64,000 nucleotides of DNA from an uncultured delta proteobacterium (GTDB lineage: Bacteria; Desulfobacterota; Binatia; UBA9968): assembly GCA_963727625.1 (NCBI GenBank), contig CAVSHR010000009.1, forward strand, positions 64,001 to 128,000, in the 5' to 3' direction. Position numbers and translations under genes: made by a program. This document shows, in pieces, positions 37,385-50,926 of this stretch. The number at the start of each line of letters is the position of its first letter. Position 1 is the stretch's first letter. Under the pieces are notes generated by a model that saw nothing but the letters and a program-made list of their open reading frames with translations, did no database searches and was not told the DNA's origin.

Positions 37385-37470
37385 GCCGGAGTGGTGGAAT
37401 GGCAGACGCGCCGGACTCAAAATCCGGTAGGGGAAACCCTGTGCGGGTTCAAGTCCCGCCTCCGGCACCA
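37385..37470 (+). tRNA. tRNA-Leu(CAA)
   Basis: GCCGGAG/CTCCGGC acceptor stem, CCGGA-CTCAAAA-TCCGG anticodon arm, long variable arm, GGTTCAAGTCC, encoded CCA. Confidence 0.97.
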
Positions 37471-37734
37471 CTTCCCTCTGATCTTACCCGACCTTTCTTT
37501 TTTGATAGGTGTTCGCTGAGTCAGCCGGCGGCGTGCCGTTCGACCATGAGACAATTGATGCACCCTTTACCTGAAGTGGAGGCGTCTCCGAGTACAAGAA
37601 AGGAACGTAATCCCTCGAATGCTCACGCTCAGCCCACCACGCACCAAGCGAATCCAGCCCTCGCGACGAATTGACAATGACCAAGATAATGCACAACTCA
37701 GGCCTGACCCCTCTGCGACACACTAAAGCAGGAG

Positions 37735-37946
37735 TGCTACGGTGAACCCCGCGTTTGATCTGTTGTTCGGTGAGCATAGCAAACCAACGCTCGACCAGAT
37801 TGAGCCAGGAGCCGCTAGTGGGAGTGAAGTGCAGATGAAAACGCGGACGCTTGGCCAGCCAGCGGTGAATCAGCGCCATTTTGTGAGTTCCATAGTTGTC
37901 GAGAATCAGATGGACTTCAAGATGAGTAGGGACCTGAGTATCAATG
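37735..37946 (-). pseudogene. IS630-family transposase C-terminal fragment
   Basis: VHLILDNYGTHK...RFHLHFTPTSGSWLNLVERWF. Confidence 0.88.
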
Positions 37947-38082
37947 GCTAGGGTTTATTGTTTCCAAAATGTTTCCACCCTAACTGAACTAAACCATAGG
38001 GACGGCCTTCCCCCCTGCTCATTTGCCCTGTTTTTGTTGCTTTTTTTCTGGTTGAGCTGAGTCCGGAAGTCGGCTAGTGTTT

Positions 38083-38127
38083 TTCGTAATCAGTAGGTCG
38101 CCGGTTCGACTCCGGCGGGTGGCTCCA
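38083..38127 (+). repeat. 3' half of tRNA-Thr(CGT), an att-type fragment rather than a full tRNA
   Basis: TTCGTAATCAG-TAGGTC-GCCGG-TTCGACT-CCGGC-GGGTGGC-T-CCA; no matching 5' half upstream. Confidence 0.8.
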
Positions 38128-38380
38128 GTCTTTTCCACTTTCAATTTCGACGGTTAGCACGTTCACTAAAATCCGATCAGAAGGCTCCAGCGGGTCATTG
38201 TAACGGTTTTGTAACGCTGGTGCCTGCTCGGGAGGCGAAAATCGACACCTGCTGGGTCAAAAGGCACATCGGTCATTGATAATTGGATTTAACGGTTGTA
38301 ATTCCCCTGACCGTGCGTGTATAAAATTGACCGCGCCAAGGCTCGACGAAGGTTACAAAAGGGTCGTGTTTAAATTTTCG

Positions 38381-38647
38381 ATGCCGCTATTCATTATTGA
38401 GATTTGGAGCGGATTTAGGCCGTTTCTTATTAAGATCACCATTGATTTTCTCGTAACTGCGAGTTTTTGGATAGGGCTATACCTTTTTAAAATCATGGCA
38501 CATAATATGCCTATACCTGAGCTGGCTGGAAAATTAGTCGTTTACATTCATGCGACGGGAACTGTAGCTGCTGTAGCAATCTTTATGTGGTATTCGATAA
38601 CAGATATAATAGAAATCAAAACAACCAAAATATTATGCCTCGCTTAG
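38381..38647 (+). CDS. Small hypothetical two-TM protein
   Basis: AT-rich ORF with two hydrophobic segments; stop overlaps the next ORF. Confidence 0.55.
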   Translation: MPLFIIEIWSGFRPFLIKITIDFLVTASFWIGLYLFKIMAHNMPIPELAGKLVVYIHATGTVAAVAIFMWYSITDIIEIKTTKILCLA

Positions 38648-39270
38648 TAAGTTTTACAAAATTTTCAAGAGAATTGTCGAACAGTGTGGCACTGAAAGCT
38701 GGCTTGACTGGCTTTACAATTATCTCTGTGTGCGTTCCAGCGGCAATTTTACTGACCTTCGGTTTTCAGGAGCGTTACGTACTAACTGGAGTTTTAGCGG
38801 CAATTATCCCTTCTCAATATCTAGCGTTCTGTTTTTTAGAGAGTCTTGGCTACTCCACAACACACACTGTTAAGAAGGTCGAAATTCCTGCACCTCTACA
38901 TGAGAGTCCATTATTGCATGCCAATTGGAAACCCTTAACCGGTCAACTGAATAATTGGACATTCGATTTAGTTATTCAGGTTCAGTTGAGGCAACTAAAG
39001 CAGAAGGAAACCGACCAACTGAGAGAAATATTGATGCAAAAGTGGAAAAAGGACGTGCTTAACCTGACTCCGATATTGCAGAAGCCGTTGTTGGAAATTG
39101 TAGACGATTTCACGAGACCTGAAGAGAAATCAATCCAAACCGTAGAATTTAATGACGTCACTAAAATGTCTGCCGGACTGTCTGTAAGTGAGCTCAACCC
39201 ATTTACATCGTTGGATCCAGTAATTCGACTTCAACGAGCACCGTTTGAGCCGGACAATTCGTTTTCGTAA
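38635..39270 (+). CDS. Hypothetical protein with two N-terminal TMs and a soluble C-terminal domain
   Basis: 211-aa open frame in AT-rich DNA. Confidence 0.65.
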   Translation: MPRLVSFTKFSRELSNSVALKAGLTGFTIISVCVPAAILLTFGFQERYVLTGVLAAIIPSQYLAFCFLESLGYSTTHTVKKVEIPAPLHESPLLHANWKPLTGQLNNWTFDLVIQVQLRQLKQKETDQLREILMQKWKKDVLNLTPILQKPLLEIVDDFTRPEEKSIQTVEFNDVTKMSAGLSVSELNPFTSLDPVIRLQRAPFEPDNSFS

Positions 39271-39316
39271 TTTTTTCCGAATTAGAAAAACGGAGCTTAA
39301 CAGGTAGGCTAAACCG

Positions 39317-40018
39317 ATGGTCAATTTCGGAAAAAATACTTATCAGTACGAAATCGTTTACAAATTCGATTGTCTATCGATAGAATTCGTAAACGAACTT
39401 GCAAGGCATTTTGTTGGACCAAAAAAACGCTTCTCGATGATCTCAAAAGATGCGGGCAACAATCATACGATAATGTCTACAGGAGCCGGAACGGAAGTAT
39501 CTCCCTTGTTTCAACTCAGAATAGGGGCAGATAGACTAATTTTTTGGGGCGGCTGGTTTGTTTCGCTTGATCAATGGCATCAACACGTCAACCAATTTCT
39601 TCCGGAAATATCGCAGTTTGTTCGGAACATTCCAGTTGAATTTATAGGAAACTTGACCAGCCAATGTAATTTCGCAGTACCTTCGTCGCGACTTAGACGT
39701 GCGACAACCGTTCCTGAATTGGAGCCGGTTGTCAATTTCTACCAAAAGTTTGTTCCAAAAGAACTTCTAAAGCGGGGTAATTTAGTTATGGCTTTTGCCG
39801 ATGAGCAAGGTCGAGAAGTCTTGAGTTGGGGGGTTGGAGGCGGGGTGCCAGTTGCAGGCCATGAAAACATTGGGTTTACTTTCCGATGGAACACCTTTGA
39901 AGACCAATTAGATCTGAAGAGTGCTTTATTGTCGCATTTTTCGAGGTATGAACGGTTTCTGGAAGATTTCCAAAGAGGTTTTTTATCCCTGATTGTTGAC
40001 GAACATGTTCATAATTAA
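39317..40018 (+). CDS. Hypothetical protein, possibly TIGR04255-like
   Basis: 233-aa ORF; FQLRIGADRLIF...W...F...I pattern recalls TIGR04255 proteins (by eye only). Confidence 0.65.
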   Translation: MVNFGKNTYQYEIVYKFDCLSIEFVNELARHFVGPKKRFSMISKDAGNNHTIMSTGAGTEVSPLFQLRIGADRLIFWGGWFVSLDQWHQHVNQFLPEISQFVRNIPVEFIGNLTSQCNFAVPSSRLRRATTVPELEPVVNFYQKFVPKELLKRGNLVMAFADEQGREVLSWGVGGGVPVAGHENIGFTFRWNTFEDQLDLKSALLSHFSRYERFLEDFQRGFLSLIVDEHVHN

Positions 40019-40097
40019 TCTCATACACCCACCGTTGAAACCGTTTTTGATTTAAACTGAAGGCCTTTTCTTAACAGCACTAGGCAACAAACCCTCC

Positions 40098-40232
40098 TCA
40101 CCGCCCCATCGGTATCACCTTAGCCTTCTGTGTCTCGAGATACAGTTGCATTTTCTCACTGGCAGCCTTCAGATCGTCTTCACTGACAATGTGATACCGA
40201 TCAAAGACCGACCTTGTCCGATGCCCACTGAG
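40098..40232 (-). pseudogene. Tyrosine integrase C-terminal remnant
   Basis: LSGHRTRSVFDRYHIVSEDDL carries the box II His and catalytic Tyr; truncated at the RAYT element boundary. Confidence 0.8.
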
Positions 40233-40941
40233 AGAGCAGAAAAGGAGAGCAGAAAAGGGGATAAGTCCAATTTTCTCTACCGCTCCTTGCGAGGTCGGCC
40301 CCGCAAGCGCAATGTGGACTTCAATCCTAAACGTTCCGCGATCCATGGTTGCCAACGTTCGTTCCCGAACGGACGACCTCTCTGAGCCGATAACCTGAGC
40401 GTTTCCAATTCTTGATCTTCGGCTGTCTCGTTTACCAAAGTGAGCCAGTCGGCGGGTCTGGGAATCGGCCATTCGGATAACACCAGTCCGGTTGTCTCCG
40501 CAGTTTTAGTAGCCCGCAAACCGAGACTCGACCATCGCCAATCTTCTGCTCGGTCTACTAATTTGGCTCTCAGTGGATTTTGCTCCACGTATCGGCAGAC
40601 CGAAAGAAAATGGTTGTCGTCCTGGACTGGGAAACTCTTATAGGTGCCTTGATAAAGGTGCCCGTTGCCGACACTATGCCGGTTTAAGTGCCAGCGTCGC
40701 ACATGGGTTGTGGTTAGCCGTTGGACAAACCTTCCTAATTCTCCATCTCGCATCGGCCACAGAACCAAGTGCCAGTGATTCGGCATAATGCAATAGGCCA
40801 AAATTCTAACCGATGTTGTTCTTGCTGTCTCAACGAGAATCCGCTCAAAAGCGTTGTAGTCCTGATTCTTTTCAAAGATCTGTGATCGTGCGTTGCCTCG
40901 ATTGAGTACGTGGAAGATGACATCGCCCGGGGCAACCCTAG

Positions 40942-42426
40942 CAGCCCGTGGTAGAAGTCCGATTTTTACAAAACGCATGGGATCGCGGCGAAGCGGTGAC
41001 TTGGGAGCGCAAATAGTCTCAGGTCGAGTCCTCGGCGCCGATGAGCGGTTAGTTGGTCGCGCAGTAGCACCCACAGAGTAAAACAGATAGCCAGTACGGC
41101 GGCAAAACGGCCCTGTAGACCGCGTGGCGTTCCAATTCCCGTCAACGTGCGCATCCACAGGCCCAGATTGCAGGCCGCTACGTGCACGAGTAGCCGTTTG
41201 AGAATATTGCCGTGCCCGCGCAGATGAGTCCGGCGCATGCCGCCGGTCTCGTAGAGATGCGCATTGGGTCGCTCTAACAACTCACCTCGTTGCCGCATCA
41301 ATAGCTGCCCACGCTCGCCTCGAATGCGCCGCCGATTGGCATACACCGCGTCACGCTCAGCCTGCTGACCCTTCCAGTGCTGCCGGCCGCGATCCGGTTC
41401 ACTGATGTAGGTGCGCAGTCCTAGGTTCTGCATATCGAGCACGGTTTGCTTACTGTGATAGCCCTTGTCGGTGACCACTTCCTTGCCTATCTTCACCTTG
41501 TCGTCGATGATCGCAGCCACCGCTTCTAATTGCTCGATTGCCTCAGGCAGCGTCGTCTGGATCGTGGTGGTGTCGCCTTGATCGGCTTCCTGCAGCGTGA
41601 CCGCCACGATGGCACCGGTCTCCAGGTCCACGGCATGCTCGGCTTTGTGCGCTAAATGGGTCCGTCCGTCCTTCATCTTGGCGATCCGTGCGTCGGGGTC
41701 ATGCGGATGTTCCCAGTCCTGGTTAGATCCTTTCTTCTTACGTTTGCGATCCAACTTCGCCAGATCGGCTCGCGTTGGGGTCTCAATGCCGGATTCTTCA
41801 GCCAGCTTGGTCAAAAACTCGTTATAGCTCTCCCCGGTGTCGCGGCGCACGATGCTGCGCAAGGCCGCGTTCGCTTCGAGCGTGGTAGCATCGATCGCCA
41901 GCGTTTTCCCTTTGATGAGTCCGGCGATGCCCAGACACTGAAGTACCCATGTGAACACCGTCCGATGGGTTTCCAAATCGATCAATCGCCGAGTCCGCGA
42001 TATCGTCGAATGATCCGGTGCACACTCGGTCAGCCCCAGCTCAAGGAACGATCGCACTCCCGAGGAGTCCGCCGCGCGCCACGCCATGGCGCGTTCAGAG
42101 TCCAGGCATTCGAAGTAGCCAAGTAATAGAAAACGGAAATATCGTCCAGGCGCCAGACTGGGCCGCCCCATCTTCTCGGCATAGAACGCCCGGCACTGCG
42201 CTTCGACAAACTCGTCGAACCCATGCTTGGCCAATAACCCGTTGAGCTTCTCGTAGAACGGGTGGCTCACAGACTTCGGCAGCTCGCTCACTCCCACCCA
42301 CATCGCTCTCTGCTCTTCGTGTTTTCGTTGTCCCATCGCCATGCAAAAAATTCTACACGATCTATCGTTCCTGTCGACTACTCTCCATCACTCTCCCACT
42401 TCATTCTCGACTTTCACCACGGGCTG
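40942..42426 (-). mobile_element. Complete IS (IS5/IS1182-type, 1485 bp) with CTAG target duplication
   Basis: IRs CAGCCCGTGGTAGAAGTC and CAGCCCGTGGTGAAAGTC (16/18); CTAG at 40938-41 and 42427-30. Confidence 0.92.
40966..42342 (-). CDS. DDE transposase with DUF772-type N-terminus
   Basis: GRPSLAP...SER...PDHSTISR, IDATTLEANA, DPDA, TDKGY. Confidence 0.92.
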   Translation of the reverse strand: MAMGQRKHEEQRAMWVGVSELPKSVSHPFYEKLNGLLAKHGFDEFVEAQCRAFYAEKMGRPSLAPGRYFRFLLLGYFECLDSERAMAWRAADSSGVRSFLELGLTECAPDHSTISRTRRLIDLETHRTVFTWVLQCLGIAGLIKGKTLAIDATTLEANAALRSIVRRDTGESYNEFLTKLAEESGIETPTRADLAKLDRKRKKKGSNQDWEHPHDPDARIAKMKDGRTHLAHKAEHAVDLETGAIVAVTLQEADQGDTTTIQTTLPEAIEQLEAVAAIIDDKVKIGKEVVTDKGYHSKQTVLDMQNLGLRTYISEPDRGRQHWKGQQAERDAVYANRRRIRGERGQLLMRQRGELLERPNAHLYETGGMRRTHLRGHGNILKRLLVHVAACNLGLWMRTLTGIGTPRGLQGRFAAVLAICFTLWVLLRDQLTAHRRRGLDLRLFALPSHRFAAIPCVL

Positions 42427-42618
42427 CTAGCGGTACGAGGCATGCGCCTAGACTAGTCCATGCAGTTACAAAATTGCAATTATTGGACTTATCCCCTTTT
42501 CTCTCCCCGAACTAGATTCACACCGAGCCGCCAGCGTATCGGAAAGGGTGCGCAACTCTCGGCAGAGACTAATGTCGAAACTCTTTTGCGGGAATGTGAG
42601 GAAAGTCCATTAACACCC

Positions 42619-45600
42619 CTAGATTTCTGGATCTCTGGAAACAAACCGACCGTATCTGAGCGCTAAGGTCGGGAGCACCAACAGATTCAGAGCCGTCGAA
42701 GTCACCAATCCGCCAAGAATCACTATCGCCATCGGGCCTTCGATCTCACGGCCAGGGGCGCCGCTGCCGATAGCCAACGGAAGCAAACCCAGGCCGGTAA
42801 CAAGCGCGGTCATGAGAATCGGGGCGAGCCGTTCAGAGGCACCGCGTATGGCTGCATCTATTCCCCAAAGCATTTCCTCGGAGGTGATCAAATGTTCATA
42901 GTGGGAGAGTAGCATGATGGAATTGCGCAGGGTGATACCGAACAGAGTGACGAAGCCGACCATTGATCCGAGCGAGAGTATTCCACCGGAGGCAAATACG
43001 GCCAGCACGCCGCCCAGCAGGGCAAAAGGCAAGTTGATGAGGACCAGGAAGAGATTACGTATATTGCCCACGACAATCGACAACAGCAAAACAATCCCAA
43101 GTCCCGCCAGCAGCGAGTGAACCAACAAATCTCGTCTGGATTGCGCTTGAGCTTCACTTGTACCGGTGAAATCAAGATAAACACCGGGAGGCAAAGAGAC
43201 GGCGGAAAGGATCTGCCGTTTTGCCTGAGCGACAAAGGAACTCACGCTGCGGCCCGCCACATTGCAAGTCACGGTTTGTACTCTTCTGGCCCCCTCGTGT
43301 AGAAGCGCATACCGGCCTGACATTTCATACACGTCGGCCAGCTGTTGCAGGCGCACGTATGTTCCATCGGGGTTGCGAAGCGGCAAAGCCGCCACATCAG
43401 CTATGCTTTTGCGCATCTGTGGATCAAGGATCACCGTTACGTCGGAAACTCGATTCCCTTCGTAGGTTTGACCTACCACATCTCCCTCATAGGCCGCGCG
43501 CACCACTTCGAGGGCATCAACCGGGTCAATACCCCAGCGAGCCAGATCCGCCTTGCGAAGCCGAATTACGAGTTGTGGCGCTCCAGGCGGAGATTGGATC
43601 TGGATGTCGGCGGCCCCTGGTATTTGAGCCAGTAACTTCGCAACGGTCTGAGCCGTGTTGTCTAAAATATCGAGATCATCGCCGAAGATATTAATGACGA
43701 CCGCAGACGTATAACCGGAGAGCGTTTCCTCAACCCGCTCGGTCAAGAAGGTGTTTACGGCAAAGGCCACGCCGACGAACCGCATGAGTATTTTACGGAT
43801 CTCCGACTGCGCCAGCTCGGACTCCCTTTCTCCTCTTAGCGGTTTGAGATCAACCTCAAACTCGCTGTCCTGAGTCCCCAGGATGTCATCGCCTTTTTCC
43901 GCCCTCCCCACGCGCTGGGCAACGGAGCGAACGTAAGGGAGTTTGAGCATTTCACTCGTGAGACGCCGTCCAAGCCGCAGCGATTCCTCCAGCGAGGTGC
44001 CGGGAGCCGCCGACATATGAATAACGAAGTGCCCTTCGTTGAGCTCCGGCAAGAATTCCCCACCGAAGAAGGGAAGCGTTGCCAGTCCTAGGACCGTCAA
44101 AAGCGCTATAATGCCTATTACAAATCGCGACCGACGTTCTATCCGAAGAAGCAGAGCGGAATAGCGCGCTTTCAGCCACCGGACAAGCGGAGGCGCGTCT
44201 TCTTGCATGTTTCGACGACCTAGGACAACAAAGCACAGGGCAGGGGTGACGGTGAGAGCGACGAGCAGAGATGCCAAAATGGCAAAAATGTAGGCAAGGC
44301 CCAATGGGGCAAACAGCCGGCCGGCGAGACCCGACAGGGTTAGGATCGGGATGAAAACCAACACCACCGCAAACGTGGCGTAGACTACTGCGCTGCGCAC
44401 CTCGACCGAAGCGTCAAGAACCACGCGAAAAACCGGTCGCGGAGTCTCCATCTGACGATTCTCACGTAGACGCCTCAGAATATTTTCTACGTCGATGACC
44501 GCATCATCGACCACTTCGCCAATTGCGATGGCCAGCCCGCCGAGAGTCATCGTGTTGAGACTGACACCTAACTGTTGCAGGATCTCTACCGAAGCGAGCA
44601 ATGACAAGGGAATGGCCGTGCAAGAGATGGCCGCCGTGCGGAAGTTGAACAAAAACAGAAACAGGACAATCACGACCAGCAGAGCTCCGATAAGCAAGGA
44701 CGACCGTATATTACTGATGGCAGTGTCGATAAAATTAGCGGGCCGGAACAGGCCCGGATATAACGCAACGTCCTGAGCGATCAGCCCGGCGCGAAGTTCC
44801 TCTAGAGCTTGTTCAACGCGCTCCGATACTTGAAGAGTGTTTGAACCGTACTGCGCTGAAATCATCAGAATGACGCCGGGGCGACCCATAATGGCGGCGG
44901 CGCCGATCGGCGGCGCCGGAGCTTCGACGACCCGGGCGACATCACCCAATGTGATAGCAGCACCGTCGTGATACCCGAGAACCGTGCTTGCGAGCTGATT
45001 TGAGGTGAGCGATTGTCCTTCGCTCCGCAGGACGATGCGCTGGTTCTCGGTATCGATGACGCCTGCCCCCCGAATCCCGGTGGCCTTGCGCGCCGCGCGT
45101 AAGACATCCTCGATCGCGAGGTTGTACTGAATCAGCCGATCCGGTTGCATTTGGATCTGTAGCTGTTTCACGTCGCTGCCGAATACGGCCACTTTAGCGA
45201 CCCCCGGAACGGCTAGAAGGCGCTGCTTCACCGTCCAGTCGGCGAGGCTCCTGAGCTCCATAAGCGAACGTGTTTCGGAGGTCAGGCCTACCGCCAAGAC
45301 CACGCTAGTGGACGACGTTAAGGGCGTCATGACCGGCGCGTCTATCCCTCCCGGTAATTGCCCCGAAACAGAAGCCAAGCGCTCTGCCACCATCTGGCGG
45401 TCAAGATAAATGTCGCTATTCGGACGAAAGGTGACCGTTACGACAGACAGCCCCTGAATCGAGCCGGATCGTAGCGATTCGACCCCCACCACGCCATTGA
45501 CGGCGTTTTCGATCGGTCGAGTAATCAGCACCTCGACCTGCTCGGGTGACAGACCCGGAGCCTCGGTTTGAATCACCGCCTGAGGCGGAGCAAACTCGGG

Positions 45601-45717
45601 GAAGACATCGTAGGTAGCCCGCGAAAGTGTATATAGACCATAGCCCAACCATGCGCATGCCAAGGCCATAACGACACCACGGAAGCGAAGCGAGAAGCGC
45701 ACGATTGCGGCGAGCAC
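42619..45717 (-). CDS. RND efflux permease, CusA/CzcA (heavy-metal) family
   Basis: DVFPEF, GEVVDDAVIDVEN, ERLAPILMT; 1032 aa. Confidence 0.93.
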   Translation of the reverse strand: MLAAIVRFSLRFRGVVMALACAWLGYGLYTLSRATYDVFPEFAPPQAVIQTEAPGLSPEQVEVLITRPIENAVNGVVGVESLRSGSIQGLSVVTVTFRPNSDIYLDRQMVAERLASVSGQLPGGIDAPVMTPLTSSTSVVLAVGLTSETRSLMELRSLADWTVKQRLLAVPGVAKVAVFGSDVKQLQIQMQPDRLIQYNLAIEDVLRAARKATGIRGAGVIDTENQRIVLRSEGQSLTSNQLASTVLGYHDGAAITLGDVARVVEAPAPPIGAAAIMGRPGVILMISAQYGSNTLQVSERVEQALEELRAGLIAQDVALYPGLFRPANFIDTAISNIRSSLLIGALLVVIVLFLFLFNFRTAAISCTAIPLSLLASVEILQQLGVSLNTMTLGGLAIAIGEVVDDAVIDVENILRRLRENRQMETPRPVFRVVLDASVEVRSAVVYATFAVVLVFIPILTLSGLAGRLFAPLGLAYIFAILASLLVALTVTPALCFVVLGRRNMQEDAPPLVRWLKARYSALLLRIERRSRFVIGIIALLTVLGLATLPFFGGEFLPELNEGHFVIHMSAAPGTSLEESLRLGRRLTSEMLKLPYVRSVAQRVGRAEKGDDILGTQDSEFEVDLKPLRGERESELAQSEIRKILMRFVGVAFAVNTFLTERVEETLSGYTSAVVINIFGDDLDILDNTAQTVAKLLAQIPGAADIQIQSPPGAPQLVIRLRKADLARWGIDPVDALEVVRAAYEGDVVGQTYEGNRVSDVTVILDPQMRKSIADVAALPLRNPDGTYVRLQQLADVYEMSGRYALLHEGARRVQTVTCNVAGRSVSSFVAQAKRQILSAVSLPPGVYLDFTGTSEAQAQSRRDLLVHSLLAGLGIVLLLSIVVGNIRNLFLVLINLPFALLGGVLAVFASGGILSLGSMVGFVTLFGITLRNSIMLLSHYEHLITSEEMLWGIDAAIRGASERLAPILMTALVTGLGLLPLAIGSGAPGREIEGPMAIVILGGLVTSTALNLLVLPTLALRYGRFVSRDPEI

Positions 45718-45732
45718 AGCGATTCTTTCCTC

Positions 45733-46779
45733 TCACTCGCCGACATGAATCTGCGATCGCAGTTCTTCCGAGAGAAGTAACTGCGCGCCGGTAGTCACGA
45801 TTTGATCATTAGGGGAGAGATCCGGTTTAACAACCCACCCCTGTTTAACCACAGCCTCGGTTGAAATCTCGCGCCGAACGAATCGGTCGGAGTCTTTCTT
45901 CACATAAACCCACCTCTTTCCCTGCCACCGGACAACGGCTGCGCGAGGCACGATGATGCCGGTCGTCGTCGAGCCGCTCGGCAAATAAGCAAGCACGTTC
46001 ATTCCGGGAAAAAGGCCTGTTGCCCGAGCTGGGGCAATATAGAAAAGGCTCATTCCTTGAATGCGTGGGTCCGTGCTCGGTGCGGGTGAGACTAAGCTAG
46101 CCGATGTAAGGTTTCCCTCTGGGCTCTGGACCCGCACGTTCCGCGGCGTGGAAGAGAGGGCTGAGCCCGGCGGAAGCGTAATCCGCAGTAAGACATCTTG
46201 TCTTTGCATCAAACGTTCAAATTCCTTGGAGTCGTTCAAAAGCCACTGTGCTAGGACGCTGCCCCATCGTTGTCGCACAGTGCTCTCTACGGCATTAAGG
46301 GCAATATCTGCAGCACGCGCGCTTGCGTCATCCGACCGCCAAGCGGCTTCCGCGGACTGGAAAACCTTGACGGAAATATTCCGGTTTTCCTGCAGGGCTT
46401 TTACGCGTTCATATTCTTTGCGCGAAGCCTCAAGCCTTGCTCGTGCCTTTTCCACCTCCGCATGGGCCGCGGCAACGCTGTTGCGAAGATCAACGAGGGG
46501 CTGAAGCTCTATGACCGTTCCGTAGCCTCTGAGCTCTTCCTGATAAGAGACGGCTTTGACTGGAGCGACCTCGATTCCACTCATTTTCTGGGTGGCTCGA
46601 TCTACATTGATGATGCTTTCACCCTTTTCTGTAGATACTCGCGGCGGCGCCTTGACGGGGCGCTCCCGCTCCCGTTCCATAGCCGCCTCTTTACGACTTT
46701 CGACAAAAGCCCAGATCAGAAGCGATCCAATGCCGAGAACAACGATGATCGCCAAAATTATTTTTAGCCTAGGCCTCAT
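45733..46779 (-). CDS. RND periplasmic adaptor (membrane fusion protein)
   Basis: N-terminal TM, coiled coil, VPRAAVV, VTTGAQLLLSEE. Confidence 0.88.
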   Translation of the reverse strand: MRPRLKIILAIIVVLGIGSLLIWAFVESRKEAAMERERERPVKAPPRVSTEKGESIINVDRATQKMSGIEVAPVKAVSYQEELRGYGTVIELQPLVDLRNSVAAAHAEVEKARARLEASRKEYERVKALQENRNISVKVFQSAEAAWRSDDASARAADIALNAVESTVRQRWGSVLAQWLLNDSKEFERLMQRQDVLLRITLPPGSALSSTPRNVRVQSPEGNLTSASLVSPAPSTDPRIQGMSLFYIAPARATGLFPGMNVLAYLPSGSTTTGIIVPRAAVVRWQGKRWVYVKKDSDRFVRREISTEAVVKQGWVVKPDLSPNDQIVTTGAQLLLSEELRSQIHVGE

Positions 46780-48200
46780 TGGTCTTTCCCCTCGCTCGGT
46801 CGAGGATCTTTCTCAATGATATTTGTGACCGCTTGCGTCGGGTTGAGCGGTTGATGCACCGCATCCTCAAGCGAGCCGATGGTCCGCTGAACTATGGTGA
46901 GGGTGTTGAAGCGGGAAAGTTCGGCGGCGGCGACCTCCAGATCAGCGCTGCGCAGGACCAGCCGATCCACTTGCCCGACGTCGAACTGCGCCTGTACGGA
47001 GTGCTGCTGATTTTTACGGGCGTCCACGAGTCGATCGGCCGTTTCCAGAGCTTGCCGTGCCGCGCGGTATCCGGCCAAAGCCCGGTCGATCGCGCCCATC
47101 ACTTGAGCTTGCAAGGCGATAAAGCGGGCTGCTGCTTCGTGGCGGCGCGCTTCCGCCTCCGCAATGGGTCCTTGATTTTGATTGAAGACCGGCAGCGTCA
47201 ACGATACGCCCAGTGACCATTTATTGTCACCTTGATCCCACGAATAACCCGGACCGAGATGAATGTCGGGATATTGTCTGGCTGTCTCCAGCTGTAAAGC
47301 CGATTGCCTGGCAGCGTAATCCGAAAGTGCGCTCAAAATATCAGGTCGGTTAAGTAACGCTCGACGTTGTACTCTTTCGGAAGGAAGGTCCACCGATGTC
47401 CGAGCAAAAAAGCCAAAAGAGAGATCGATTCCGTCAAGCGCGGCCACTGATAATCCGAGTGCATCGGCGAGCCGTACCCGCGCCTCGGCGCTTTGTTTTT
47501 GCGCATCGCGCAGAGAAAGCTGAGTGCGAGCAAGAGCGATACGCTCCTGGGTAAGATCAGGCTGGGATGCTTCGCCAAGCTCAAGCCGCTGTTCGAGAAG
47601 TTTAACAACCTCCTGTTGAACCGTTTCCTGTTTCAATAAAAAGGTTTCAGTCTGACGCGACGCGTAAAGCTCGACTAGGCGCGCTCGCAAACGGCTTCGC
47701 ACTTGCCACGCCACAGTGGAGATATTTAGACGGGCCGCTTCGAAAAGGTGCTTCGCTTGATCGATGCGATATCCTCGCTTACCAGCGGTTTCTATCGGGA
47801 TGTCGAGGGTCGGGGTCACGATCCAAGGCGAAATCCCACCTGTGGCGCTAAAGTTGTATTCGGGGAGGAAGCTAACATTCGGATTGGGATGTTCACCAGC
47901 GGTGATCACGATGGCCTCGGCAATGCCCCACTTGGCACGCACAACGTCCAGGTCCGGATGGTAATAAAATGCCGCGAGCCTGAGCATCTGAAAATCCCAG
48001 ATCTTAGGCGGCCAAGACGCTAATTCATGGCCAAGGTTGGTCCTGAGAAATTCTTTTAAACCCGCGGTATCGAGCGTGCGGGCTTTAAACTCTGCGGCTG
48101 TCTGAGTCGGAGCAAGTGGCCTCGGCCGGAATGTCGCACACCCGTCAAGGAGGGCGGCGATGGTTATAAACGCCAGAGTGCGACTAATCCGCTTCTCCAT
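46776..48200 (-). CDS. TolC-family outer membrane lipoprotein
   Basis: Lipobox LDGC, HPDL/RPDI repeats, first gene of the RND operon. Confidence 0.9.
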   Translation of the reverse strand: MEKRISRTLAFITIAALLDGCATFRPRPLAPTQTAAEFKARTLDTAGLKEFLRTNLGHELASWPPKIWDFQMLRLAAFYYHPDLDVVRAKWGIAEAIVITAGEHPNPNVSFLPEYNFSATGGISPWIVTPTLDIPIETAGKRGYRIDQAKHLFEAARLNISTVAWQVRSRLRARLVELYASRQTETFLLKQETVQQEVVKLLEQRLELGEASQPDLTQERIALARTQLSLRDAQKQSAEARVRLADALGLSVAALDGIDLSFGFFARTSVDLPSERVQRRALLNRPDILSALSDYAARQSALQLETARQYPDIHLGPGYSWDQGDNKWSLGVSLTLPVFNQNQGPIAEAEARRHEAAARFIALQAQVMGAIDRALAGYRAARQALETADRLVDARKNQQHSVQAQFDVGQVDRLVLRSADLEVAAAELSRFNTLTIVQRTIGSLEDAVHQPLNPTQAVTNIIEKDPRPSEGKDQ

Positions 48201-48498
48201 GAATATAAAACCTCCTCCAATATCCCCAACACTGAGCTAGGGACTCAGCTGTGCATTGCCACTGGTTGAGGGTCTCGCTGTGCATTAGAATTCCTTCGGG
48301 TTTTTAAACAAACTGATTGCTGTCCAAGCGAATTTTGGTGAGCAATAAGAATAGCCAAGGCTGAAAAATAGTCTAATCCCTGGAAACATCAATTCAATCG
48401 CAATATTAACGACTCATCTCGCCATTGCATCGCTTCGGCCCAGACATTTGCCGGAACGTCCCGTTAGGCGATAGTTTTTACTTTTCTGAGTACGTGCC

Positions 48499-48530
48499 TT
48501 GACTCTGTACCTAGGTACGGAGTGTACATT
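48499..48530 (+). promoter_or_regulatory. MerR-type promoter/operator
   Basis: TTGACT-N20-TACATT with the near-perfect dyad ACTCTGTACCT|AGGTACGGAGT (48502-23) in the long spacer, like the GTAC-N4-GTAC mer operator. Confidence 0.88.
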
Positions 48531-48550
48531 ACCTTTTAGAGGGCAATGAA

Positions 48551-49027
48551 ATGCATGGCTTGACCATAGGGCAGCTCGCCAAAGAGAGCAACGTGCACGT
48601 TGAAACGATCCGTTATTACGAGCGCCGAGGATTAATTTCCAAGCCGCCGCGATCGGTCTCAAATTACAGGATGTATTCCTCCGAGAATCTACGCCGCTTA
48701 AAATTTATCAAGCATGCACAGGGACTCGGCTTCTCCCTAAAAGAAATTAAGGAGATTCTGTCTTTGCGTGCAATCCCGCGCGCTAGGTGTGCCGATGTTC
48801 AAAAATACACGACTCGCAAAATCGAAGAACTTCAAGAGAGAATTCATTCGCTAACACGCATGCGCAGAAGCCTAGAAAAGCTCCTGCGTGAGTGCTCCGG
48901 AGACCTGCCGGCGACAGAGTGTCCGATACTTGAGTCGATGGAATCTGAAAACCGAAAAAACCGATCAATTAAATTCAAACGAAAAGGAGCGGTTTATGAG
49001 CAAAAAAAGGGAAATCGAAATTTATAG
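48551..49027 (+). CDS. merR: MerR-family metal-responsive regulator with three conserved Cys
   Basis: VETIRYYERRGL HTH; RCADV, ECSG, ECPIL; the C-terminal extension may reflect an indel in the A-run near 48955. Confidence 0.88.
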   Translation: MHGLTIGQLAKESNVHVETIRYYERRGLISKPPRSVSNYRMYSSENLRRLKFIKHAQGLGFSLKEIKEILSLRAIPRARCADVQKYTTRKIEELQERIHSLTRMRRSLEKLLRECSGDLPATECPILESMESENRKNRSIKFKRKGAVYEQKKGNRNL

Positions 49028-49265
49028 TGCGGGCTGCCCGGCATGTGAGGACGCGATCAAACTGGTAAACGGCATCGCCTGTGACTCTTGCGAGGTCACG
49101 GTACTCGATATGCAGGATCGGGCGGTAGCCCAGAGAGCGAAGACTCTTGGGATCCAAAGCATACCGGCAGTCGTGATCGATGGAAAGCTCGCCGCCTGCT
49201 GCAAAGGACGCGGTATCAGTGAATCCGCGCTGCGCAGCGAGGGGATCGGTCAACCGTTGCCTTAG
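48996..49265 (+). CDS. Small thioredoxin/glutaredoxin-like protein (CPAC plus CC)
   Basis: AAGGAG RBS; EIYSAGCPAC, IPAVVIDGKLAACC. Confidence 0.85.
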   Translation: MSKKREIEIYSAGCPACEDAIKLVNGIACDSCEVTVLDMQDRAVAQRAKTLGIQSIPAVVIDGKLAACCKGRGISESALRSEGIGQPLP

Positions 49266-49278
49266 CATCTAGAAATTT

Positions 49279-49623
49279 ATGCAATTTGAAACCGTTAAGG
49301 CCGGTGTTATAGGCATGTCGGCCGCCATCGTGGCGTCTCTTTGTTGTCTATTGCCTTTGATTGTTGTGCTCCTGGGTTTTGGAAGCGGCGCTTTCATGAT
49401 GGTGACCATGCAATACCGCGCGTTATTCCTGCCCATGGGCGTGCTCGGCGTGTCGTTGGGTTATTATTTGTATTTTCAGAAAAGACGCCGATGTGCCAGC
49501 GCCGGCTGCACCTTCGTGGGCGGGACATTCAATTTGGTTCTTCTTTCCTTGGCCACAGTCATGGTCGCGCTGGCGCTTGGATTAGATTTTTTTCGCAATT
49601 ATCGTCTGAGATGTTGCAGATGA
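49279..49623 (+). CDS. merT: MerT-like membrane metal transporter
   Basis: ASLCCLLP in TM1, three TMs, CASAGC in the cytoplasmic loop; 3' end possibly shifted at a T7 run. Confidence 0.78.
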   Translation: MQFETVKAGVIGMSAAIVASLCCLLPLIVVLLGFGSGAFMMVTMQYRALFLPMGVLGVSLGYYLYFQKRRRCASAGCTFVGGTFNLVLLSLATVMVALALGLDFFRNYRLRCCR

Positions 49624-49648
49624 TCATGTAGGCCGGGAGGTCCTCGTT

Positions 49649-49972
49649 ATGAAAGAAAAGCGTATCCTGATCCGTCTTTTTCTTGTTCTTCTCCCTCTTT
49701 GTTGGCTAACCGTCTTTTCGCTGTACACTGAGCCGCTGCATGGGGCTGAACTTAATCAAGTCAACCTACAAATCGAAGGAATGACCTGAGGGGCATGTCC
49801 CGTCACCGTGCGGGCAGCCCTGGAAGGGCTAAAGGGAGTGAAAAAGGCACAAGTGAGTTTCGCCGAAAAAACCGCCACTGTTACCTATGATCCTCAGGCG
49901 ATTGATATCCCGGCAATGGTTCAGGCCGTGAAGAGGGCCGGATTTTTCGCGCGCACGAGCGCGACGAAATGA
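49649..49972 (+). CDS. merP: MerP/HMA-domain exported metal-binding protein with in-frame TGA (candidate selenocysteine, GMT-U-GACP), 107 aa
   Basis: GGGAGG RBS, signal-peptide-like N-terminus, QVNLQIEGMT*GACPVTVRAALEGLKGVKKAQVSFAEKTATVTYDP...VKRAGF; TGA at 49787-89 is codon 47; hairpins follow. Confidence 0.85.
49790..49830 (+). promoter_or_regulatory. Candidate bacterial SECIS element
   Basis: Two alternative folds right after the TGA: GGGC..CCCG/CGGG..GCCC (49791-820) and AGCCCT-GGA-AGGGCT (49816-30). Confidence 0.55.
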
Positions 49973-50002
49973 CTCCTGAAAACGGATCCAGAGGAGGGAT
50001 AT

Positions 50003-50338
50003 ATGAATGACGATCACGGGTCCCGGCAAGGGAACAAGTGTTTTAAGACAGGCGTGTTCGGGACAATTATCGCAGCCATTTGTTGCGCCACCCCTGTCCT
50101 GGCGGTTGCGTTGGCTTCTATAGGCTTGGCGGTCATAGTGCCGAAACTTGATTACGTTCTCCTTCCTGCGCTGCTGATTTTCCTGCTTCTGGCTCTTTAC
50201 GGATTGCGAAAGGGAAGACATGACGGAGACCACCCGAAATGGAGATTGAATCCCCGAACTGTTGTTCAACAGCCGGTCCCGAAACGGTCGAGGACCATTG
50301 CCCGCGTTGTGCCGGCAAAGGAAAGACCGTTTCGCTGA
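50003..50338 (+). CDS. merF: MerF-like mercury transporter
   Basis: GTIIAAICCATPVL...LDYVLLPAL; the true stop may be near 50223 if there is an indel. Confidence 0.82.
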   Translation: MNDDHGSRQGNKCFKTGVFGTIIAAICCATPVLAVALASIGLAVIVPKLDYVLLPALLIFLLLALYGLRKGRHDGDHPKWRLNPRTVVQQPVPKRSRTIARVVPAKERPFR

Positions 50339-50703
50339 TAACTGTTGGGTCAATGGCGAAAACTTCGGTAGAGGCCTGCAAACTCGCCCGGTCATCATAC
50401 CAGCTCTGCCACAATCCCGATTGCTCGGTCGTGTATTTTGCCCCTGGAATTACAATACAAAAAACAGAGCTTCGGGTTCCCGTCAACTTCAAGGAAAAAA
50501 ACTACGACGGCCCTGTCTGTTATTGTTTCAATCACACCGTGGCGAGCATCAGAGCGGAAATTCAATCCACCGGTCGTTCCACAGTCCAAACGGCGATCAC
50601 CAAGGAAATACAAGCGGGGCGTTGCGCCTGCGAGGTCAAGAACCCGGCTGGCTCATGTTGCTTGGGGGATATCACACGGGCTGTGCGAGCTGTGGTTGTT
50701 TAG
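50239..50703 (+). CDS. Cys-rich CopZ-N-terminal-like (Zn/2Fe-2S) metallochaperone
   Basis: CPRC, CHNPDCSVVYF, CYCF, CACEVKNPAGSCCLG. Confidence 0.82.
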   Translation: MEIESPNCCSTAGPETVEDHCPRCAGKGKTVSLITVGSMAKTSVEACKLARSSYQLCHNPDCSVVYFAPGITIQKTELRVPVNFKEKNYDGPVCYCFNHTVASIRAEIQSTGRSTVQTAITKEIQAGRCACEVKNPAGSCCLGDITRAVRAVVV

Positions 50704-50862
50704 TATGCGGAGACTCGTCTGGGGTACGCGTTGAACGACGGTGATAGTCGTCTTCAACCTGTTGATAGGTTAGAAACAATGCTATCCGATTGGAGTGTTT
50801 GACTCTCACATTTTCACAATTAAGAAAAAATTATCCAAGAATTCTAAATATTTAGTATTACG

Positions 50863-50926
50863 CGCGCCGGACTCAAAATCCGGTAGGGGAAATCCTGTGC
50901 GGGTTCAAGTCCCGCCTCCGGCACCA
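50863..50926 (+). repeat. attR-like 64-bp duplication of the tRNA-Leu 3' part
   Basis: 63/64 identical to 37407-37470 (AACCCT vs AATCCT). Confidence 0.95.

Follow-up and report, generated by a model that had tools for sequence, protein, structure and literature searches.

We analysed a window of 64,000 nucleotides (nt), namely positions 64,001 to 128,000 of the forward strand of contig CAVSHR010000009.1 (assembly GCA_963727625.1), from an uncultured delta proteobacterium of the Binatia. Here we focus on a small gene in this window that encodes a MerP-like heavy-metal-associated (HMA) domain protein, in which an in-frame TGA, the proposed codon for selenocysteine (Sec, U), stands at the position of the first metal ligand. 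The gene and its immediate signals are as follows (positions are those of the window).

49649..49972, + strand: HMA/MerP-like gene, 107 amino acids, with proposed Sec47 (UxxC), based on direct reading, Pfam, NCBIfam, AlphaFold2 (AF2) and Foldseek
49635..49640, + strand: ribosome-binding site GGGAGG, 8 nt ahead of the ATG, read directly
49787..49789, + strand: in-frame TGA, proposed Sec codon at the first metal-ligand position, from the sequence and the same codon in relatives
49796..49798, + strand: TGT, Cys as second metal ligand; TGA here in relatives with UxxU

The gene starts with the ATG at 49649 and ends with a terminal TGA at 49970-49972. When the internal TGA is read as U, the translation has 107 residues, including IEGMT-U-GAC-PVTVRAALEGLKGV, and U replaces the first Cys of the loop motif GMT-U-GAC-P. 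Besides this TGA, the 107 codons contain zero frameshifts and zero further stops. A gene caller would miss the gene because translation table 11 breaks the frame into two open reading frames (ORFs), 49649-49789 (46 amino acids) and 49808-49972 (54 amino acids). An initial annotation made from the letters alone had drawn attention to an unlisted ORF with a ribosome-binding site, a TGA at the first Cys of the MerP motif and a stop at 49970-72, lying in the merP position after merT. Direct reading gave the same coordinates, and the preceding gene (49279-49623) is indeed MerT-like.

A single domain spans the TGA, because the match to Pfam HMA (PF00403) runs unbroken over residues 40-99 (profile positions 2-61 of 62, E 3.8e-16, 59.6 bits against a cut-off of 24.8). 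The AF2 model, computed from a 7-row alignment, has a mean predicted local distance difference test (pLDDT) score of 80.9, with values above 90 across the domain. It shows a beta-alpha-beta-beta-alpha-beta fold over residues 36-103 (strand 36-43, helix 50-59, strands 64-70 and 75-80, helix 87-96, strand 100-103), and residue 47 lies in the loop ahead of helix 1. The top Foldseek match in the PDB was oxidised MerP (1osd_A, TMt 0.95, root-mean-square deviation 0.6 A, 34% identity), followed by other HMA domains; there were 66 PDB matches at E<=0.001, and all 46 rows listed were HMA-type metal-binding proteins or domains. Given the basic and then hydrophobic N-terminus and an AF2 helix at residues 5-22, residues 1-32 are a predicted signal peptide. 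The N-termini of relatives carry a signal peptide, a lipobox (LVGC, LSGC) or a twin-arginine-like motif (SRRLFL), so to judge from these motifs an envelope location seems conserved in the family, with differing export routes. The lipoboxes belong to the G041 and G045 homologues, and the SRRLFL resembling a twin-arginine signal was seen upstream of nt 1502 in the L081 homologue, from a record titled Rokuibacteriota (G, L and C are our labels for genomes, loci and contigs).

Among NCBIfam models, the top match was NF041115 ('UxxU_metal_bind', a metal-binding (seleno)protein), with 94.0 bits when U is read as C (E 4.6e-27, profile positions 1-71 of 74). Scores of seven close relatives, which together with the window gene belong to a group that we call a-type, were comparable: L086 passes the model at 102.5 bits and the other six reach 85.6-94.0. 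The MerP equivalog TIGR02052 was not reached (71.2 bits, cut-off 92.55), CopZ models gave 50-57 bits, and NF045683, a model for a MerT/CopZ fusion-like selenoprotein, gave 54.7 bits against a cut-off of 375.

The genes for Sec insertion, which the initial annotation had proposed to look for in the host, are present. selA (607.5 bits), selB (397.5) and selD (377) all score above their curated cut-offs and lie side by side at C5:715112-719466, and selD (C5:718540-719466) has an in-frame TGA of its own in the motif AAG-U-AAK. A canonical tRNA-Sec(UCA) at C5:768830-768924 scores 76.7 bits on RF01852, above the cut-off, and has an 8-bp acceptor stem, a 5-bp T stem (8/5), a long extra arm and the G discriminator that is the rule for tRNA-Sec. 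Furthermore, 15 of the 25 AhpC-TSA matches of the genome contain exactly one in-frame TGA. As far as its sequence tells, this genome uses Sec heavily.

The UGA might nevertheless be recoded to something other than Sec, either to Cys through a SelC*-type tRNA (tRNA-ReC) or to Trp or Gly by near-cognate read-through. A 2026 paper on UxxU hydrogenases (PMC13582414) reports that tRNA-ReC-like tRNAs are commoner in genomes with UxxU motifs, where UGA may be read as Cys. However, the sole UCA tRNA of our genome has the 8/5 shape and G discriminator of tRNA-Sec, with no second UCA tRNA found in the genome by ARAGORN; there is one ordinary 76-nt tRNA-Cys(GCA), and selA and selD adjoin selB. We therefore regard recoding to another amino acid as very improbable.

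The TGA is shared by relatives. A search of the genomes of 61 relatives matched the protein in nine, and several of the matches have an internal TGA. A class-wide search of 401 genomes with NF041115 gave an HMA match at E<=1e-10 in 95, with 14 TGA-bearing rows in 14 genomes. One of these rows is the window gene itself. Of the 13 others, all but the unpublished G402 were fetched, and these 12 together with G045 make up 13 relatives. The genome tallies include the unpublished G035, G362 and G402, and the sequence claims rest on none of them. TGA is the first ligand codon in all 13 fetched TGA-bearing small HMA relatives, the eight Cys forms aligned have TGC at the codon of the window's TGA, and invariant columns flank this codon on both sides, so the coding is conserved. 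This is the pattern of shared TGA, aligned Cys and conserved flanks that the initial annotation had suggested looking for among homologues.

The relatives differ at the second ligand. G404, G171, G398 and G300 form a UxxC group, with the motif of G404 (GMTUGACP) identical to that of the window, and G041, G045 and G036 form a UxxU group. A third Sec form of small HMA proteins, UxxxC, has three residues between the ligands; it was seen in six genomes (L073 and L075-L079, from G271, G070, G294, G304, G324 and G251) as GMH-U-PxS-C or GMT-U-PVN-C. In addition, second genes in G041 and G036 (L036 and L039) make up a UPIU subfamily of exported HMA proteins of 166-169 amino acids with the motif GMI-U-PI-U-A and an extra C-terminal domain, which score only 51 bits on NF041115. 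Upstream of the HMA(U) gene of G036, a glutaredoxin-like gene has an in-frame TGA of its own (L054 nt 495, YTQPG-U-SAC; the window counterpart has CPAC).

U forms also occur in public records of metagenome-assembled genomes (MAGs) from four differently labelled phyla, with UxxU forms in MAG records labelled Rokuibacteriota, Deltaproteobacteria and Nitrospinota, and the remaining 73 of the 80 public loci kept have CxxC forms only. This search used the four closest sequences. Because one of its two patterns had Cys in place of Sec, only the other, ALEGL, was able to pick up U forms; 6 U loci among 80 are thus no frequency, and the U-form counts in general come from biased searches. A tree of 21 hand-picked HMA domains (13 U forms and 8 Cys forms) left 12 of its 18 inner branches without support; only the pairs G404 with L082 and G041 with G045 are usable, and the place of the window protein is unsettled. 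G404 (UxxC) and L082 (UxxU) are 82% identical sisters in this tree (93/87 support), and such near-identical sisters imply that the second ligand toggles between Cys and Sec within the clade. selB was above its cut-off in five of six other U-form genomes tested, the exception being G045 (81% complete), and in one of four Cys-form genomes.

Downstream of the TGA, two hairpins came into question as the selenocysteine insertion sequence (SECIS).

49816..49830, + strand: candidate SECIS hairpin AGCCCU-GGA-AGGGCU, over codons A-L-E-G-L, with the loop at 49822-49824, 32 nt past the TGA
49799..49814, + strand: alternative upstream hairpin CCCGU-CACCGU-GCGGG, register not conserved, absent in G045

The first, with a 6-bp stem, the loop GGA and -7.8 kcal/mol, is the AGCCCT-GGA-AGGGCT with a G-starting loop 32 nt downstream that the initial annotation had singled out, and it is also the conserved one. 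Its core GCCCUGGARGGGC was found in the same place in all nine distinct a-type U forms (the window, a second copy on contig C12 of the same genome, G404, G041, G045, G036, L081, L082 and L086) and in none of 137 CxxC HMA motifs from the 80 public loci. Stem variation among the a-type U forms keeps the pairing (U-A to U-G, A-U to G-U). The UPIU subfamily has the hairpin CACGCC-UGGAA-GGCGUG, with the same loop, three codons (9 nt) further along and 31 nt past the second UGA. When a-type and UPIU hairpins are aligned on their loops, three stem pairs are changed on both sides in a compensatory manner. Over 11 sequences, 94.8% of cells are paired, compared with 26-61% when the partners are slid, and the covariation score was reached by 0 of 500 shuffles. 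The upstream hairpin at 49799-49814 was rejected as the SECIS, given its varying register, its absence from G045 and a loop without G in the first two positions, and is kept as an alternative. Because G045 has two UGAs without the upstream hairpin, we favour the conserved hairpin as the element serving both.

The hairpin also resembles those at other Sec sites of the genome. Our hairpin rule, which derives in part from bSECISearch with its 16-37 nt window, takes a stem of at least 5 bp and a loop of 3-8 nt with G in the first two positions, 14-37 nt past the UGA. G in the first or second loop position is likewise the SECIS rule stated in the hydrogenase paper (PMC13582414). A hairpin fitting the rule was present at 12 of 16 other presumptive Sec sites of the genome, as against 29.5% of 5000 random positions, and the HMA hairpin (distance 32, -7.8 kcal/mol) is within the range of the genome's own Sec sites, with the selD loop at 33 nt. 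The downstream hairpins of the AhpC-TSA and selD sites mostly have the loops AGGUU, AGUU, GUU, GUG or AGGAA, 16-25 nt past the UGA. The case that the HMA hairpin exceeds chance is one of comparison with its relatives.

The HMA(U) gene sits in a module with the order merR-like, thioredoxin (trx)-like, merT-like, HMA(U), merF and copZ-N.

48551..49027, + strand: MerR-family regulator with three Cys (one in RARCADV, two as C-x8-C); TIGR02051 142.2 bits (cut-off 150.85), CueR 128.7
48996..49265, + strand: small thioredoxin/glutaredoxin-like protein, CPAC; start uncertain, longest ORF from 48888
49279..49623, + strand: MerT-like membrane protein with a CC pair in the first hydrophobic segment; below the cut-offs of MerT models
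50003..50338, + strand: MerF-type transporter; NF033565 79.4 bits (cut-off 50)
50239..50703, + strand: CopZ N-terminal-type putative iron-sulfur cluster-binding metallochaperone; NF047645 117.8 bits (cut-off 100)

The MerT-like neighbour has no in-frame TGA. The order merT-like, HMA(U), merF, followed by copZ-N where the locus extends, is conserved in L080, L082, L083 and L054; L084 has merT-like, HMA(U) and copZ-N, L072 has HMA(U), merF and copZ-N, and merR, trx, merT-like and HMA(C) recur in Cys-form loci. The merF ORF (to 50338) and the copZ-N-type gene (from 50239) share 100 nt, and the MerF model covers residues 14-70 only, so merF may end, or the copZ-N-type gene begin, elsewhere than called. 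From the terminal TGA of the HMA(U) gene (49970-72) the frame runs on into merF without a further stop (49970-50005), probably by coincidence. A programmed HMA-MerF fusion was rejected, as the in-frame terminal TGA is found in the window and G041 and is not found in seven other loci read through.

Each of the refuting outcomes named in the initial annotation was looked for, and none came up. Given these observations, we consider it highly probable that 49649-49972 is a functional selenoprotein gene, encoding a Sec47-x-x-Cys50 HMA protein of the NF041115 clade whose UGA would be decoded through a hairpin SECIS. The frame, the fold, the place of the TGA, the Sec machinery, the conserved hairpin and the gene order are seen directly; incorporation of selenium at residue 47 is highly probable on this evidence, and the proposed export, metal and direction of transfer are only somewhat favoured. 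In the proposed mechanism, the UGA at 49787-89 would be decoded as Sec by the host's SelA, SelB, SelD and tRNA-Sec, with SelB and Sec-tRNA binding the hairpin (most likely that at 49816-30, within the coding sequence) when the ribosome meets the UGA. The pre-protein would be exported to the cell envelope, where the mature domain may hold a soft metal ion between the Se-47 selenolate and the S-50 thiolate. Hg(II) would be the first-candidate metal, since the regulator is of MerR type with three Cys and the neighbours are MerT-like and MerF. The membrane proteins encoded on the two sides of the gene, MerT-like and MerF, would then take over the metal through their vicinal-Cys pairs, with the thioredoxin-like and CopZ-N-type proteins as possible cytoplasmic acceptors. 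Compared with a thiol, a selenol has a lower pKa, higher nucleophilicity and tighter binding of Hg(II), and its chemistry would favour metal capture and fast ligand exchange in an oxidising compartment.

Several points weigh against this reading. The hairpin alone is weak: under our hairpin rule, -7.8 kcal/mol was reached by 4.7% (0.047) of 5000 random genome positions, and the minimum free energy of the 81-nt segment 49780-49860 is no better than that of shuffles (z -0.29). The minimum-free-energy fold of this segment pairs GGGGC with GCCCU, and the global energy test is uninformative for it. No Rfam family reached its gathering score on the hairpin in a whole-window scan that gave tRNA only, a null result that we do not take as evidence. 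The covariation amounts to about one evolutionary event, because all compensatory changes come from one subfamily with the hairpin shifted by 9 nt. The NF041115 score falls 1 bit short of the curated cut-off of 95, and the motif is UxxC (U-G-A-C, second codon TGT) and not the UxxU with two Sec of that model. In 28 of 30 same-genus genomes there was no match to the HMA(U) protein, so the gene is dispensable, and the second HMA copy of the same genome (C12:56048-56263) is frameshifted, as is the MerT-like gene of its module. The TGA was checked on low-depth contigs and not on raw reads of the source, and the literature searched held no experimental study of any family member, on selenium incorporation or otherwise. 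On the side of the metal, no MerA (TIGR02053) passes the cut-off in the genome, which is 98% complete (best 380.7 bits against 454.45), and the five best matches to the MerA model all lack both a C-terminal Cys pair and an N-terminal HMA domain. The C-terminal CC pair is a hallmark of MerA. Because no MerA passes the cut-off, classical Hg import and reduction is not the whole story.

Some of these points would fit a pseudogene, with the TGA arising by nonsense mutation, or through misassembly, in what used to be a CxxC MerP-like gene: the frame is split under table 11, a decayed paralogous copy exists in the same genome, and most congeners gave no match with this query. By contrast, all 13 fetched relatives have TGA at this codon, with the protein conserved on both sides, the hairpin is specific to U forms (9 of 9, against 0 of 137), the Sec machinery is complete, and the 107 codons are free of frameshift or other stop. 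The pseudogene explanation is also at odds with a metagenome contig. The initial annotation had advised confirming the TGA in raw reads. Over 49734-49900, a Logan contig of a soil metagenome run (X2; 169 nt, depth 2.85) is about 97% identical, with five differences. Those listed include C>A at 49815 and A>G at 49843, and none is listed for 49787-89 or the hairpin stem. This contig is independent of the assembly and lends weak support to the TGA, being a contig and not raw reads of the source. Four runs matched the stretch, with word shares of 0.06-0.13; there was no RNA run among them, none holds most of the stretch, and the uncovered parts are uninformative. In another soil run (X1), a contig of 196 nt (depth 2.4) joins 49713 to 50271 and skips 557 nt, including most of the HMA gene and merF, which reflects either a deletion variant or a contig chimera. 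Overall, the pseudogene explanation is largely refuted, and we give it very little credence.

A real Sec-containing periplasmic HMA protein could have another partner or metal, either as a CusF-like chaperone for the divergent resistance-nodulation-division (RND) pump (42619-48200, minus strand) or in the traffic of Cu(I), Ag(I) or Cd(II), and the module would then serve sequestration or uptake and not mercury detoxification. Pump, membrane-fusion protein and outer-membrane factor are encoded immediately upstream, on the opposite strand, and no MerA is above the cut-off in a genome 98% complete. Moreover, the MerP equivalog is missed (71.2 against 92.55) while CopZ models reach 50-57 bits, and the regulator scores nearly as well for CueR (128.7) as for MerR (142.2), both below cut-off. 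However, the neighbours conserved across phyla are MerT-like, MerF and CopZ-N and not an RND pump, the top structural match is MerP, and the regulator shows the three-Cys pattern that is typical of Hg-MerR. We consider another metal or partner unlikely, and retain the selenoprotein with Hg(II) as its first candidate.

The module lies at the right end of an island of about 13.5 kb (37385-50926), which is bordered by a tRNA gene and its partial repeat.

37385..37470, + strand: tRNA-Leu(CAA), left island border
50863..50926, + strand: 64-nt direct repeat of the 3' part of tRNA-Leu with 1 mismatch, right island border

Upstream of the module, on the minus strand, are the genes for the RND pump (42619-48200), membrane-fusion protein and outer-membrane factor, followed by DDE and IS200-like transposases. 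The island contains two low-GC kilobases (0.42-0.44) and two low-GC ORFs without Pfam hits (38587-40018). A transposase fragment at 37484-37879 on the minus strand, which we take to be IS630-like from its motif, is also inside it. No intact integrase was seen in 37385-50926; an ORF at 40098-40472 (minus) presumably ends like a tyrosine recombinase. The tRNA-Leu, partial repeat and transposases look like the signature of a decayed integrative island, and the mobile island postulated in the initial annotation finds support in the 64-nt repeat of the tRNA-Leu 3' part and in the transposase genes. The same genome has a second module at C12:54.8-57.3 kb (L041, L023, L024), with merR-like, merT-like and HMA genes and two MerF-like stretches. 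Its HMA gene keeps GMT-U-GACP and the same hairpin, and the module may be a paralogue in decay, or else the assembly is locally wrong.

A broader reading that joins these observations can be offered only tentatively. One hairpin (GCCCUGGARGGGC) would direct the insertion of Sec at a single UGA or at a pair of UGAs spaced 9 nt apart, and the second ligand would flip between Sec and Cys among near-identical relatives; in the UPIU subfamily the hairpin would have moved by exactly three codons, with the distance to the second UGA preserved. In this picture, metal would enter at the selenolate of the HMA(U) protein and pass to an import module of MerT-like, MerF and CopZ-N proteins that is under MerR control, has no MerA and travels on islands between soil and sediment bacteria that use Sec. 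If true, this would be a selenium-dependent route of soft-metal uptake or sequestration and not classical mercury detoxification. The lack of MerA in any case raises the question of the fate of the imported metal in such a module. The family is known from computational prediction only, and the window gene adds a well-supported selenoprotein that ordinary gene callers split or drop; the annotation needs correction here and in at least 13 related genomes. As a stand-alone domain of 75 residues with natural Sec-x-x-Cys, Sec-x-x-Sec and Cys-x-x-Cys versions, it is convenient for measuring the effect of a selenolate on affinity and exchange rate for Hg(II) and Cu(I), and the same family suits asking whether one bacterial SECIS serves two UGA codons 9 nt apart.

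Among known systems, the protein resembles MerP of Tn21/Tn501-type mer operons (PDB 1osd, 1afi; TIGR02052) in its predicted signal peptide and single HMA domain with a GMTxxxC loop, and its gene, like merP, is placed after a merT(-like) gene under a MerR-type regulator; MerP is also the top structural match. Unlike MerP, it has proposed Sec in place of the first Cys and scores 71.2 on TIGR02052 (cut-off 92.55), and unlike in mer operons, no merA is above the cut-off in the operon or genome, and merF, trx-like and copZ-N genes are added. Sec forms of mer-type metal-trafficking proteins have been predicted from metagenomes: the 2008 Global Ocean Sampling (GOS) selenoproteome lists 'Mercuric transport protein MerP' and a 'putative mercuric transport protein' (MerT) among its selenoprotein families (PMC2398784), and a passage of a 2022 preprint mentions MerT-family selenoproteins (bioRxiv 10.1101/2022.07.06.499078). 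The comparison with these entries is by table rows and passages that carry no sequences. Unlike the Sec MerT families, the window's MerT-like protein is encoded without an in-frame TGA. In review tables, a putative mercuric transport protein and a cation ATPase with UxxC likewise have Sec forms. Such P-type ATPases, with UxxC in an N-terminal HMA domain, and NF045683 have Sec at the first HMA ligand, as is proposed for the window protein; their HMA domain is part of a large membrane protein, whereas ours is a stand-alone domain predicted to be exported.

The closest known family is NF041115, which shares the domain and the position of the first Sec with the window protein and whose UxxU relatives with the same hairpin and operon score 85.6-102.5 bits. 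It differs in having two Sec (UxxU) where the window protein would have one (UxxC, 94.0 against 95 bits), and the window gene is best classed as a UxxC member of a mostly UxxU clade. The main text of the 2007 selenoproteome paper (PMC1976440) does not describe this family; the tables of reviews list it as UxxU with two Sec. The novelty implied in the initial annotation was thus too high, since the family is curated as NF041115 and listed in reviews, and the window gene is an unannotated one-Sec (UxxC) member of an already catalogued selenoprotein family.

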